Origin: Chamaesiphon sp.
GTDB lineage: Bacteria; Cyanobacteriota; Cyanobacteriia; Cyanobacteriales; Chamaesiphonaceae
Assembly (NCBI GenBank): GCA_965246715.1
Contig: CBDFFH010000029.1
Coordinates: 82,687 to 146,686 of the forward strand
DNA: 64,000 nucleotides
Reading direction: 5' to 3'
The position numbers and the translations under genes were made by a program. A model generated the notes under the pieces. That model made no database searches, was not told where the DNA came from, and was given only the letters and a program-made list of their open reading frames with translations. Below are positions 27,877 through 38,726 of this stretch, piece after piece (position 1 is the first letter of the stretch; the number at the start of each line of letters is the position of its first letter).

Positions 27877-28160
27877 CGGCAAAGTGTAGTTGAAAGAGAC
27901 GGATCGGTCAAACCAGCCCCTAAAACATTATTGCAGACCGATCGGTTTGAGGTTGTTGCGGTTGTTGAAGTTGCGACACTAGCCATTTAGCGCTCGGTAA
28001 TTTTAGTATACCGCCTCCGAATCCTTACTCGACAGCGGTAACCATCTAAACTGTCGCTCTTGCCTCCACAACTCGCAGTGCAAAACGATCGGTGACGCTC
28101 GCTGAATTTAAATCTCGCTGGTAGTGCCCGATCGGCACCAGCGATCGAAAATAAGCTACA

Positions 28161-28282
28161 CTAAGGTTCGGTTCGATTGGGGAGCAGCTAATCGAGGTAA
28201 CGGGGAAAGTTTGGTGCAAAACCAACGCTGTCCCGCAACTGTAATGTCATCCATCGCGATCGCTAAGTCAGAATGCCCGCCG
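28161..28282 (+). promoter_or_regulatory. Cobalamin riboswitch
   Basis: GGGGAAAGTTTGGTGCAAAACCAACGCTGTCCCGCAACTGTAA ... AGTCAGAATGCCCGCC (B12 box) directly upstream of cobW. Confidence 0.92.
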
Positions 28283-28323
28283 AAAGTTAAGTTCGAGTCT
28301 GTACGCTGGATACAGTTTAAGCT

Positions 28324-35609: not shown

Positions 35610-37388
35610 ATGACATCAACAGAATTAGAATTAATAATCGATCGAGCCATCCAAGATCGATCGACCCATCTAGATCTTTACCAGAAACAAATATCTAGTC
35701 TACCAGACTCGGTCGGCAATCTTACCGATTTAGTCAGCCTCCGTTTAACTGACAATCGCCTGACGACACTACCTGCAAGTATCGGCAATCTCACCAATTT
35801 GCGCGAGTTGAGATTATATAAAAATCAGCTCAAAATGTTACCGGATAGCATAGCCAATCTCCAGAATTTAACCTGGCTGAGTTTGAGCCTCAATCGACTG
35901 ACTGTATTTCCAGAGAGCATCACCGAGCTAACTAATTTAACAGGGTTGCTGTTGAATGGCAATCAAATGGTAGTATTGCCGCAAAGTATTAGCAAGCTGA
36001 CTAATTTAACCTATCTCGACATCACTGGTAATCCGCTGATGGATCTATCGGTACTGCACCATTTACCAAAATTAAAAACCGTCAAATTTTGGGGTGTAAA
36101 TTTACCGCGTAAATATTGGATCGAGCTAAAATCTCTGTCTTCAGCTTTGCAGTTAGTTAATGGTGCGATCGTCGAATATCAAATTAAACCTGAGAATTTA
36201 AGACGTCTTGGCAAACAGTCACTGATCTGGCTACCTAATAATCTGGATCTATACTTACCGACAGAAGATAGAATAAACGAGAAGATCGATACTCCAGAAT
36301 CACTCAGCTTTTTTGGTAAGGTTGCCAAACAAATGTTTGGAGATATACGTGAAAATTTAGAGAAAAAATTTCCAGAGCACCATCTCCATTTGTCAGGAAA
36401 TCAATTAACTTTACTGCCATCCAATATCGGTAAATTGAATCAGCTAACATGCATAGAATTAAGAAGCAATCAATTAACATTTATTCCAGCAAGTATCGGC
36501 AATCTAACTAATCTTACTCATTTAGACTTACGATGCAATCAATTATCTTTCTTGCCTAGCAGCATCGATAATTTAACCAGTCTCACACATCTGTATCTCG
36601 GTGGTAATCTTTTTGATTCCTTACCAGATGCGATCGGTGAAATGAGCAAACTAACGCACTTGCATGTCAACGCAAATTCATTAACATCATTACCAGAAAG
36701 CTTCGGCAAGCTTTCTGGGTTGATAGAATTAAATATGAGCAATAATAATCTCAGTAGTCTGCCACTGTATCTCGACACGTTGACTAAATTAAAGAAACTA
36801 AATCTATCTAATAATAATCTTACTGAGTTACTCAATAATATTGGAAACTTAGTCGATGTAGTTAGCCTCAATCTAAGTGGCAACCAATTGACAAAGCTAC
36901 CGACAAGTATCAGATTCCTGCGTGAGTTGACGAGTTTAGATTTATTAGGAAACCCACTTACCGATTTATCAATTCTCCAATATTTGCCCAAATTGCAATC
37001 GATACATTTTATGGGGTATTTGCCTCGTCGATATTGGACTAAATTTAGCGAATGGAAATCTGAGTGGTTACTAGACGAAACAAACGCAGCAATAAGACAG
37101 AGATTAATTCAACAAATTGGCTATGAAAGAATTTGTCAGGAATTGGATTCAATGCAGCTCGATACTTGGCGAGAATATACATTACTCAAAATTGATGGAG
37201 TAGAAAGCTCTTATGATTGGCGTAGAAGTAGAACTATTCACGAACCGATGGTATTACTCAAGATGACATGTCCATCTACAGGACATATTCATGTTTTGCG
37301 CGTACCGCCTGACATGACGAGTGCGGAGGCTGCGATTACCTGGGTAAATCATGGCATTCATCCTGATAGATTTATGGTTCAGACGTAA
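35610..37388 (+). CDS. Leucine-rich-repeat protein with C-terminal DUF6745-like domain
   Basis: LxxLxLxxNxLxxLPxSIGNL repeats; C-terminal WLLDETNA...LLKMTCPSTG...LRVPP...AITW. Confidence 0.88.
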   Translation: MTSTELELIIDRAIQDRSTHLDLYQKQISSLPDSVGNLTDLVSLRLTDNRLTTLPASIGNLTNLRELRLYKNQLKMLPDSIANLQNLTWLSLSLNRLTVFPESITELTNLTGLLLNGNQMVVLPQSISKLTNLTYLDITGNPLMDLSVLHHLPKLKTVKFWGVNLPRKYWIELKSLSSALQLVNGAIVEYQIKPENLRRLGKQSLIWLPNNLDLYLPTEDRINEKIDTPESLSFFGKVAKQMFGDIRENLEKKFPEHHLHLSGNQLTLLPSNIGKLNQLTCIELRSNQLTFIPASIGNLTNLTHLDLRCNQLSFLPSSIDNLTSLTHLYLGGNLFDSLPDAIGEMSKLTHLHVNANSLTSLPESFGKLSGLIELNMSNNNLSSLPLYLDTLTKLKKLNLSNNNLTELLNNIGNLVDVVSLNLSGNQLTKLPTSIRFLRELTSLDLLGNPLTDLSILQYLPKLQSIHFMGYLPRRYWTKFSEWKSEWLLDETNAAIRQRLIQQIGYERICQELDSMQLDTWREYTLLKIDGVESSYDWRRSRTIHEPMVLLKMTCPSTGHIHVLRVPPDMTSAEAAITWVNHGIHPDRFMVQT

Positions 37389-37423
37389 GATCTCCAAACC
37401 GTCCTCTGCTAGGATCGATCTGT

Positions 37424-37499
37424 GATGGTATAGCTTAAGTGGTGAAAGCTACTGCCTTCTAAGCAGAATATGATGGCGGTTCGAGTCCGCCTGCTGTCA
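37424..37499 (+). tRNA. tRNA-like element A1, anticodon TCT (Arg); atypical, possibly non-functional
   Basis: Acceptor GATGGTA/TGCTGTC (3 G-U pairs); D arm GCTT-AAGTGGTGA-AAGC; CTGC-CTTCTAA-GCAG; T arm GGCGG-TTCGAGT-CCGCC; no CCA. Confidence 0.7.
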
Positions 37500-37503
37500 C
37501 ACT

Positions 37504-37576
37504 AACAACGTAGTTTAATTGTTAAAAACGCTGTGGAGTATACCCAGTCATGCAGGTGCGATTCCTGCCGTTGTTG
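37504..37576 (+). ncRNA. tRNA-like element B1 with no canonical anticodon loop
   Basis: Acceptor AACAACG/CGTTGTT; D stem GTTT/AAAC; bulged arm CTGTGG-AGTATA-CCCAG; T arm GCAGG-TGCGATT-CCTGC. Confidence 0.7.
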
Positions 37577-37598
37577 TCTTGTGTTAACATGTATCTGT

Positions 37599-37671
37599 GA
37601 GAGCATAGTTAAATTGGTGAAAATACGTCCCTTTCACGGATGCGATGGCGGTTCGAGTCCGCCTGCTGTCA
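37599..37671 (+). tRNA. tRNA-like element A2, anticodon TTC (Glu); atypical, possibly non-functional
   Basis: Acceptor GAGAGCA/TGCTGTC (one G-G mismatch); CGTCC-CTTTCAC-GGATG; T arm and 3' end identical to A1; weak D stem; no CCA. Confidence 0.7.
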
Positions 37672-37675
37672 CACT

Positions 37676-37747
37676 AACAACGTAGTTTAATTGTCAAAAC
37701 GCTGTGGAGTATACCCAGTCATGCAGGTGCAAACCCTGCCGTTGTTA
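37676..37747 (+). ncRNA. tRNA-like element B2 (near copy of B1)
   Basis: Stems identical to B1; differences confined to the D loop and T loop (TGCAAAC). Confidence 0.7.
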
Positions 37748-37878
37748 TTTTTAAATTTTTATTATTACTAAGCAATTGCTGCTTTACATTGAAGCACAGC
37801 TTCGATCTCGTTGAGCTGTCTGCTAGTAAAAACGCCGCTTGTGGGTACCCTGGATTTACTGTTATCACTAGTAATCTA

Positions 37879-38091
37879 ACGTCAGTTCGGGATAAGCATT
37901 AACGATCGATGACTCCTAGCTTCGTTTCTACACCGCCCTCAAATGAATTTGGGGCTAATGGCAAAAGTTCTCTGAAGAGAACTGCTAAATTCCCCAGTTC
38001 GTTTCAACGAACTTTTGCCATTAGCCCGAACTTCTAGTTCAGGGCGGTGCTTGAACGGAGCAAATCAATTTTCCTTATCCCGAACTGACGT
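37879..38091. mobile_element. MITE/REPIN-like element, type CCGCCCTCAAATGAAT
   Basis: Perfect TIR ACGTCAGTTCGGGATAAG/CTTATCCCGAACTGACGT; 7-bp direct repeat TAATCTA on both sides. Confidence 0.9.
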
Positions 38092-38227
38092 TAATCTAAA
38101 CTCGTGCAAGATGTGAGTAAACCAAAAGATATACCTTTAGTAAGAGGGTAAAAATAGGGATCTCTTTGAGAATGGCTAATATTGGCTCAACAGCGCCAAG
38201 ATATTTCCCGCGAATACTGAAATACCG

Positions 38228-38572
38228 ATGAAACTAACGTTACCCGCGCTGCGATCGAGAAACTATCGGCTATTTTTTACCGGACAAGGCATCTCCTTAA
38301 TCGGGACGTGGATGACACAATTGGCAACAATATAGGTAGTCTATCAATTGACAAATTCCGCCTTTATATTAGGTTTGGTGGGATTCATCGGACAAATTCC
38401 GAGTTTAGTGTTGACTCCATTCGGTGGCTCGCTTTCCGAGCGATTCGATCGCCATAATAACTCAAGGATTGGCGATGGTTCAATCGCTTACCCTGGCTGC
38501 TTTTACCCTCACTGGAACGATTAATATTTGGCTGCTATTGGGATTGGGATTTTTGCAAGGAGTCATCAATGC
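38228..38572 (+). pseudogene. MFS transporter pseudogene (5' fragment)
   Basis: MKLTLPALRSRNYRLFFTGQGISLIGTWMTQLATI* (TAG 38333) VVYQLTNSAFILGLVG..., then a frameshift to LAMVQSLTLAAFTLTGTINIW...QGVINA, where it is truncated. Confidence 0.82.
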
Positions 38573-38726
38573 ACTCAGCTAGTCCTCGACAGATCTGTTC
38601 TTGTTCTTCGGCCTGTCTTGCTAATAATATTCCGGCATCTGAACTCAGTTCTAAGTCTGAATATCGGACTACTAACTGCCGCCGATCGTAAAAATTATAG
38701 GGGAGTGGAGAAATACACTCTGTCAT
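38560..38726 (-). mobile_element. IS1380-family transposase N-terminal fragment
   Basis: YSDLELSSDAGILLARQAEE matches the IS1380 'LSSDaG' N-terminus; only about 55 codons remain. Confidence 0.75.

Follow-up and report, generated by a model that had tools for sequence, protein, structure and literature searches.

The locus considered here lies in a 64,000-nucleotide stretch of a Chamaesiphon sp. genome (the window; contig CBDFFH010000029.1 of assembly GCA_965246715.1) and contains two tandem pairs of tRNA-like elements, each composed of an A element followed by a B element. It raises the question of what the tRNA-shaped B elements are, i.e., whether they decode and, if not, with which partners they are maintained. 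The original prediction presented B as a structural, non-decoding RNA paired one-to-one with an anticodon-bearing A RNA, equipped with a compensated D/T elbow and with palindromic loops able to join two B copies. Here, these claims were confronted with homologs of the element and with the genes that accompany it.

Organization of the locus

The features of the locus are collected in Table 1.

Table 1. Features of the A-B locus in the window (+, forward strand)
Feature	Position	Strand	Basis and remarks
Atypical SDR-fold protein, 387 aa	34327..35490	+	Pfam adh_short; in the clade carrying A-B units
LRR protein with a weak C-terminal DUF6745 match	35610..37388	+	Pfam LRR; DUF6745 E 4e-4, below cut-off
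Predicted extended -10 box, TG-N-TAGGAT	37407..37415	+	sequence; ends 8 bases before A1
A1, tRNA-like, anticodon arm Arg(UCU)	37424..37499	+	Rfam tRNA 54.5 bits; family acceptor/T arm
B1, tRNA-shaped, arm core UGGAGUAUACC, A33, G55	37504..37576	+	arm 37531-37547; 86.9 bits with the family model R1
Predicted extended -10 box of the second unit, TG-N-TAACAT	37582..37590	+	8 bases before A2
A2, tRNA-like, anticodon arm Glu(UUC)	37599..37671	+	Rfam 58.1 bits; 3' half same as A1
B2, second B copy	37676..37747	+	arm 37702-37718; R1 91.9 bits
T-run, predicted transcript end	37748..37752	+	directly 3' of B2; terminator-like match

The predicted -10 box of A2 overlaps the T-rich run located 3' of B1, and the acceptor stem of A2 carries a G3.G70 mismatch. 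Apart from B1 and B2, no other B was found in the host genome. The protein encoded next to the units has its nearest named homologues in cyanobacteria. A contig from one RNA run spans positions 37651-37745 with 7 differences and may represent DNA.

Several other features of the window should be mentioned. A probable MITE, small and bounded by perfect 20-base terminal inverted repeats that enclose a 40-base hairpin, is located at 37877-38093, and reads related to it are common in run X2. Broken reading frames at 38229-38726, transporter-gene-like by eye and giving no Pfam match, are abutted by a transposase fragment (DDE_Tnp_1_4, E 2.7e-5). A cobalamin riboswitch (49.6 bits) is present at 28152-28298.

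Structure and conservation of the B elements

Most of the original description of B1 and B2 proved accurate. Both copies have seven Watson-Crick pairs in the acceptor stem (AACAACG/CGTTGTT) and five in the T stem (GCAGG/CCTGC), they share the identical arm CTGTGGAGTATACCCAG with A at position 33 (i.e., no U33-type loop), their T loops are TGCGATT and TGCAAAC, and their D loops have TG in place of the GG of tRNA. However, B1 starts one base downstream of the predicted position 37503, and the differences between the copies, which do fall in the D and T loops as was claimed, also include base 73 (G 37576 vs. A 37747).

On the Rfam tRNA model, B1 and B2 scored 44.8 and 44.6 bits (E ~4e-8 in a 901-base scan), and besides tRNA no Rfam family came near its threshold around B; the scan of the whole window with the gathering score and fast filters missed both copies. 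The folding energy of either copy is unremarkable alone (z -0.78 and -0.93). For the comparative analysis 51 B copies were gathered, originating from 24 cyanobacterial genomes and 10 metagenome contigs, with one truncated copy and one copy interrupted by an insertion excluded from the counts; 45 of the copies were parsed and 38 distinct ones were aligned. Since the copies are related, counts of B are not independent.

Within the 38 distinct copies the cloverleaf was paired in 93.4% of cells and 11 doubly changed pairs were found. This pairing level was equalled in 0 of 500 shuffles, which ignore kinship, and slid partners were paired in 41-59%. Pair changes affected each of the four stems and were spread over several families, and the covariance analysis of homologs upheld the cloverleaf. 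The bases invariant in the alignment (U8, A9, G10, A15, A21, U48, G53, U54, and A58) are usual tRNA core bases.

The stems of B have the 7/4/5/5 layout of tRNA, with the anticodon stem containing one U30.C40 mismatch or a bulge. The consensus of this arm reads U30-G-G-A-G-Y-A-B-A-C-Y40, with A33 instead of U33. U30, G31, G32, A33, G34, A36, A38, and C39 are constant in all 51 copies; position 35 is occupied by a pyrimidine (U or C), position 37 by U, G or C, and position 40 by C in 49 copies and by U in two. By comparison, the two stem pairs flanking the fixed core vary (0.9-1.5 bits), and the outer arm pairs occur as C-G/U-A/U-G and U-A/G-C/C-G. Bases U30 and C40 pair in 0/38 copies; if U30 is bulged and G31 and G32 pair with bases 40 and 39, the arm is 100% paired, and both registers (the U30 bulge and the U30.C40 mismatch) fit the data equally well. 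Part of the set was gathered with a pattern containing the arm core; as the SDR protein, and not the RNA pattern, led to 13 copies from nine genomes, the fixed core is not merely an artefact of that pattern.

A core of this kind may recall the T-box antiterminator. UGGA-GYAB-ACC equals the T-box bulge UGGNACC (sequence from PMC11404447) with four inserted bases, and one may imagine B sensing a free tRNA 3' end, with UGG pairing to the CCA of uncharged A or of a host tRNA and switching an SDR complex; the absence of U30-C40 pairing would suit this, as would the acceptor end being the most conserved part of A. We regard such a role as very unlikely. The T-box sequence is a 7-base bulge between two helices, whereas in B it lies in a hairpin whose G31 and G32 can pair within the arm in 38/38 copies. 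Moreover, A33 is mismatched to the discriminator A73 of A, the T-box-like bases never vary and so offer no covariation, stem I is absent, and the Rfam T-box model gave no match in the window or near B.

Decoding capacity of the B elements

ARAGORN labels both B1 and B2 as tRNA-Tyr(GTA), and the simplest explanation would be that B is an ordinary or decaying extra tRNA-Tyr or tRNA-Cys. GUA or GCA does occupy positions 34-36 in 51/51 copies, the Rfam tRNA model scores above its gathering score, and the truncated copy and the insertion-broken one do exist. However, the canonical loop (Y32, U33, and purine 37) is missing, with G32 and A33 in 51/51 copies, and A33, G32, and a non-purine or G at 37 are fixed over at least nine families, which argues for selection against a canonical loop and not for decay. 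The host tRNAs have YU-anticodon-R in 48 of 51 cases and TTCRA in 50 of 51, and B keeps neither; the D-loop GG is present in 5 and G55 in 43 of the 45 parsed copies. Decoding tRNA-Tyr has a long variable arm and A73, and tRNA-Cys has U73, whereas the variable loop of B has 4 bases and its base 73 may be A, G, C or U. Finally, the host possesses normal tRNA-Tyr and tRNA-Cys genes, as well as normal tRNA-Arg(UCU) and tRNA-Glu. An ordinary or decaying tRNA gene is therefore highly improbable.

The comparative sequence data indicate that the cloverleaf of B is maintained and that decoding by B is unlikely. The predicted one-to-one pairing of this RNA with an upstream A also stood, in 45/45 units and in six copies found later. 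Taken together, B is very probably a selected, non-decoding component of a module linked to the SDR gene.

The elbow and the loop palindrome

The original prediction proposed that a compensatory change of G18-Psi55 into U18-G55 preserves the elbow; the preservation found support and the strict compensation did not. Pair 19-56 is G-C in 26, A-U in 4, U-A in 3, and unpaired in 5 of the 38 distinct copies, and the three copies devoid of any D-loop G also lost C56. As pair 19-56 covaries and copies lacking the D-loop G lack C56, the alignment suggests that B likely keeps the tertiary elbow. In the aligned sequences G55 is nearly fixed and can be read as a family mark of B. Base 18, which faces it, is U in 28/38 copies, C in 3, and another base in 7, with G and A also represented; U18 occurs in 0/6 of the later copies, and two copies with U55 carry U18, not G18. 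Because base 18 varies and the U55 copies have U18, no strict compensatory swap took place.

It was also proposed that B1 and B2 kiss as a dimer through the palindrome GUAUAC exposed in their loops. The hexamer GTATAC is indeed in the loop and is self-complementary in both copies of the window and in 13 of the 14 copies of the genus, with a duplex energy of -4.0 kcal/mol, and the chance of a palindromic hexamer in an 8-base window is 4.7%. However, it is not fully exposed, because its last base, C39, is paired within the stem in both arm registers. More importantly, the palindrome is not conserved: the hexamers found in 51 copies were GTATAC (22), GCATAC (12), GTAGAC (11), GCAGAC (3), GTACAC (2), and GCACAC (1), 19 of the 34 sources had no GTATAC, and positions 35 and 37 change separately, not jointly. 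The self-duplex of GUAGAC amounts to +0.6 kcal/mol, co-folding of two B copies gave no loop-loop pairing (the program used is unable to form kissing loops), and many loci have a single B. The dimer idea fails for lack of conservation, and we consider it extremely improbable.

Predicted transcription and processing signals of the A-B unit

The A element ends 1-4 bases upstream of B in all 45 units. A TAnnnT motif ends 5-10 bases before A in 41/45 units, as compared with 9, 5, and 6 of 45 in shifted windows, and at least four T residues are present within the first 8 bases 3' of B in 36/45 units; a sigma-70 scan requiring a -35 box found no promoter at the A-B units of the window. From these signals we infer that each unit may yield one transcript of ~150 bases. 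In three units A begins 5-8 bases after the SDR stop codon, and these may be co-transcribed with the SDR gene.

Regulation by TrcR was considered and rejected, since its direct-repeat operator (TGTWNWWNW-N2/3-WGTANYNWA over the -10 box) had 0/41 exact matches; allowing up to two mismatches, it was found in 7/41 units vs. 4% of shuffles, a figure inflated by AT-rich -10 boxes.

The junction between the two elements reads A73-C-C followed by A at B +1 in 18/45 units; there, A released by cleavage at B +1 would lack just the final base of CCA. This close joining, in which B +1 would double as the final base of the CCA of A, fits a more limited role, i.e., that B merely processes or protects the end of A, recruiting RNase P and closing the transcript, with the SDR acting elsewhere or on A. 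The acceptor/T helix and the 19-56 pair are kept, a U-run follows B, and pair 1-72, unpaired in 8/38 copies, is the weakest of the cloverleaf, all of which would suit a processing signal. On the other hand, the most conserved part of B is its anticodon-side arm, and we know of no case in which RNase P reads this arm. The invariance of the arm calls for a second partner beyond RNase P, and a role limited to processing is on the unlikely side.

The A element as a variable tRNA-like partner

Like B, A has the 7/5 fold and a short variable loop. In 42 distinct copies pairing is almost complete in both the acceptor and the T stem, with the acceptor mostly GGCAGYG/CRCUGCC-A, and U56 is present in most copies; a few A elements stand alone, lacking B. 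The anticodon arm is free to vary and differs even between near-identical loci. Compared with the tRNAs of the window's host genome only, exact matches of A arms reached 27 bases for Asp, 20 for Ala, 18 for Glu, and 16 for Arg, vs. 6-8 bases for B; the arm of A1 matches the host tRNA-Arg(UCU) exactly over 16 bases and that of A2 matches tRNA-Glu over 13. Such variability could reflect neutral gene conversion from host tRNAs and not selected diversity. By an automated rule, the anticodon arm looks canonical in 25/43 A copies as compared with 48/51 host tRNAs, and the remaining 18 show C33, long loops or, in some cases, unfoldable arms. Automated reading of 43 copies gave the anticodons UUC (9), GUC (6), UGC (6), GAC (6), GCU (3), CAU (2), and UCC (2), i.e., mostly ending in C and corresponding mostly to codons that start with G.

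The constant acceptor end combined with many anticodons would also be expected if A were a deliberate missense tRNA similar to allo-tRNAs, keeping one amino-acid identity under changing anticodons and restrained or matured by B and the SDR. Allo-tRNAs follow the same logic and occur in polycistrons near toxin-antitoxin genes, as described in the covered part of PMC5389517. However, 18/43 A arms are non-canonical, most A copies have U56, a synthetase gene was present in 0 of the fetched loci, and the 7/5 fold with a short variable arm is unlike an allo-tRNA; missense translation by A seems unlikely.

Two direct contacts between A and B were considered and rejected. Firstly, pairing of the A anticodon with a codon in the B loop was examined; this purine-rich loop contains GAG, GGA, AGY, and GYA, but the anticodon of A does not follow the loop variant of its own B; A with an Asp anticodon, for instance, stands next to either a GTATAC or a GCATAC B in 5/6 units. 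Secondly, pairing of the ACC of B with the D-loop GGU of A is contradicted by several loci in which A loses its GG and the ACC of B stays.

Distribution of the units and linkage with the SDR gene

When 61 related genomes were searched at the DNA level, arrays turned up in 7 of the 26 that belong to the genus and in a single genome from another family. The protein search with the SDR alignment was positive for 12/201 genomes of the order and 4/201 of family f7. A first, strict B pattern matched 1/401 genomes of the phylum and was too narrow; the relaxed pattern matched 19/401 genomes of the order, one of them (G629) falsely, with 0 matches in the reversed control, and in metagenomes it indicated 35 stretches, among which 10 were true B. 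The remaining 25 metagenome matches and that of G629 were rejected as chance, having no cloverleaf at the motif and no SDR. Also rejected were five weak R1 matches (45-48 bits) in non-cyanobacterial genomes, which turned out to be ordinary tRNAs in four cases and an odd tRNA-like gene in the fifth. A phage or plasmid origin was discarded as well: the SDR gave 0 matches in viral contigs, the B pattern gave 0 and one chance match, and no match to the module was found in the plasmids and phages searched.

The SDR gene stands beside a unit in 17 of 20 B-bearing genomes and within 2.5 kb of B in all 10 true metagenome matches, and A-B was found behind 9/10 SDR loci of the short clade (described below) that had been located by protein alone. 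In three genomes (G004, G009, and G496) units were found with no SDR in the fetched region, and for G496 no SDR match was obtained at E<=1e-80; in G059, G627, and G579 the second units lie 3-5 kb from the SDR gene, and G478 has the SDR but no B. The genes flanking SDR/A-B vary among lineages and a promoter is predicted for the unit itself, which makes plain synteny an unlikely cause of the linkage. Gene neighbourhoods indicate that the A-B units travel with one clade of atypical SDR genes.

It should also be noted that in G496 (contig C104; L216:6218-6461) the D loop of B in one A-B unit is split by an insertion of ~100 bases with inverted ends.

The SDR protein and its repeat-protein neighbours

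Classical SDR enzymes have a Rossmann fold with a glycine motif and the catalytic YxxxK. In the protein studied here the former is present and the latter absent: the motif HPHTNMAK has Thr in place of the catalytic Tyr, and TNMAK, invariant in 27/27 aligned proteins, lies opposite the YxxxK region of 3cxr. The invariant columns C11, H19, Y22, C26, C29, and H294-K301 include an N-terminal Cys/His cluster, a putative zinc finger, and a TGAR cofactor motif is also present. The AlphaFold model (pLDDT 84) was assigned an SDR fold by Foldseek, which returned generic folds only. Searches of NCBIfam, PADLOC, PDB, Foldseek, and the ESM Atlas gave just generic SDR and LRR matches, with 0 PADLOC families for either protein at E<=0.01.

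In a quick tree, 22 SDRs with A-B and the one of G478 formed a single clade of short proteins (SH-aLRT 100), separate from 29 long forms. The long-form family is much larger and has the same HPHTNMAK and Cys/His finger, and no B was found with long-form SDRs either in 80 loci or in a set of 32 genomes; hence, these two features did not evolve for B. For the whole SDR family ~12,000 matching stretches were estimated, and a genome-wide scan covering 4 of 64 parts showed no cyanobacteria among its matches.

The SDR gene is usually adjoined by a gene encoding a repeat protein, i.e., an LRR protein in the genus Chamaesiphon (at the same place in eight genomes) and pentapeptide-repeat proteins, encoded upstream of the SDR, in other families. 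A literature search on DUF6745 found no paper. In one locus of G495 (L125:9151-11548), and in that one only, an AAA ATPase gene and a DUF2201 peptidase/vWA gene are located upstream of the pentapeptide and SDR genes, in line with them.

Proposed role of the module

Our preferred reading, to which we assign a probability of roughly 0.45, is that RNA and protein form a module linked to the SDR, with B as its constant handle and processing site and A as its variable part. Each unit would be transcribed from its own -10 box into a precursor of ~150 bases ending in a U-run. RNase P would cut at B +1, the 12-pair acceptor/T helix and the 19-56 pair being retained, and the cut would leave on A a tail of 1-4 bases, which is already CC in 18/45 units. 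G55, the loss of GG, and A33 would keep B off the ribosome. In a less supported step, the SDR, deprived of the usual catalytic Tyr and retaining the cofactor motif and the Cys/His finger, may bind the fixed arm of B, and A would present its fixed acceptor end together with an exchangeable anticodon arm.

Conflict systems typically show patchy spread, changing location, exchangeable parts, and one hypervariable part. Because the spread of the units is patchy, their location changes, the repeat proteins are exchangeable, and A is hypervariable, the module would most likely be a stress or conflict device in which A substitutes for host tRNAs attacked by tRNA-cutting toxins, but neither the SDR nor the LRR protein matched any of the PADLOC models of anti-phage defence. 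A more specific version, which we consider improbable, makes the SDR, the repeat protein, and the A-B RNA a sensor of tRNA integrity. B would then act as a fixed anchor or, in the manner of a T-box, read a free CCA end, and A would be a renewable bait, its anticodon arm being recopied from host tRNA genes to match the tRNAs cut by toxins or phages; the damage or charging state of A would switch an NAD(P)-linked activity of the SDR.

Comparison with known systems and other tRNA-like genes

With B taken as a handle and processing site, its function would, by analogy, be most like that of the YrlA Y RNAs, which are tRNA mimics acting as protein tethers and cleavable by RNase P (PMC4201824, in the part covered). 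Membership fails on score, shape, and partner. The best YrlA score (RF02553) near B was 16 bits, partial and located at the A1-B1 junction, as compared with a gathering score of 69; YrlA has a long Ro-binding stem, whereas B is a full, unpermuted cloverleaf devoid of such a stem; and the partner of YrlA is Ro60/Rsr, whereas here the predicted partner is the SDR. Ro60/TROVE was not among the scanned neighbours of B (SDR, LRR, and pentapeptide proteins), and the Ro60 gene of the host genome is located on another contig.

Allo-tRNAs combine a fixed scaffold with many anticodons, and their tRNA0/1/2 polycistrons, located near conflict genes, contain irregular tRNAs, some of which are charged yet do not translate (covered part of PMC5389517). 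Many anticodons on one scaffold are common to allo-tRNAs and A, not B. However, allo-tRNAs have an 8/4 or 9/3 acceptor branch and a long variable arm, unlike the 7/5 fold and short variable loops of A and B, and they were described in Clostridia, Proteobacteria, and Acidobacteria, while A-B is cyanobacterial; the covered portions of the text and supplement text of PMC5389517 contain no mention of cyanobacteria or of the B core. The cyanobacterial L-arrays (the trn operon) comprise extra tRNA genes proposed to be sponges for toxin RNases and, in the parts of PMC8421152 and PMC10272220 covered, form one long operon, repressed by TrcR and neighboured by HNH/RtcB genes, in which most tRNAs can be charged. 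The A-B units differ from them in having one predicted promoter each, an SDR neighbour, and no exact TrcR box.

An SDR serving tRNA processing is exemplified by the human SDR5C1-TRMT10C, a scaffold for processing tRNAs with altered elbows; it is mitochondrial, dependent on TRMT10C, and acts on coding tRNAs (PMC11996679, in the part covered), and nothing among the top sequence or fold matches listed points to a special kinship of our SDR with SDR5C1.

Elements in which an RNase P cut of a tRNA-like structure makes the 3' end of the preceding RNA include mascRNA/menRNA and the t-elements of plant mitochondria. They resemble B in being tRNA-like elements, for which RNase P cleavage is predicted in the case of B; unlike B, they are eukaryotic and have a reduced anticodon arm lacking a fixed motif, and the mascRNA/menRNA family RF01684 gave no match at B. 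No description of the module was found in Rfam or in the searched literature, which mostly excluded subscription journals, and the covered part of PMC5733544 contains nothing on these genes. The A-B units are tRNA mimics in kind, with a protein link that has not been described.

In the course of the searches other odd tRNA-like genes were observed. A second array in the host genome (G000:C43:56500-57920; L217, L218) contains four tRNA-shaped genes in which a related insert of ~60 bases takes the place of the anticodon loop, the inserts sharing GGGACG...GGGTTATCG, less exactly in one of them; in three of the four the T loop carries G55 as in B, 2 kb downstream there is a Ro60/TROVE gene, and in Rfam only tRNA was above threshold. 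These genes are possibly Y-RNA-like. Just upstream of long-form SDR genes, tRNA-like genes with an apparent 8-pair acceptor stem and C33 were noted in the cyanobacterial genomes G200 (L130:7958-8034) and G541 (L131:7970-8075), an LRR gene following the SDR, and the one of G541 is preceded by a lone T arm with the TGCAAAT loop of B. In a non-cyanobacterial genome, a tRNA-like gene (L212:1501-1577; G712:C506:20279-20354) has the arm CCCGG-AGTAATGAC-CCGGG, which resembles the GGAGUA..GACC of B; it is one example, and no SDR was seen within 1.5 kb. The host genome also contains a degenerate Ser/Ile tRNA-like pair (G000:C2:295134-295283) and, next to its normal tRNA-His, a second tRNA-His gene that is divergent (G000:C52:144154-144416).

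Significance

If the proposed reading is true, the A-B units would represent a new family of tRNA mimics encoded in bacterial chromosomes and associated with a protein of SDR fold, a type of pairing between an SDR and tRNA that, to our knowledge, is otherwise known only from human mitochondria. Their design would be a two-part one, in which A keeps its acceptor end and swaps anticodon arms and B keeps an arm that cannot be read. As ARAGORN names the B genes tRNA-Tyr or tRNA-Cys, they inflate tRNA counts unnoticed. Moreover, a unit of 150 bases with one protein lends itself to direct assays of binding, processing, and charging, and their outcome would offer a first entry into a large, functionally uncharacterized SDR family.
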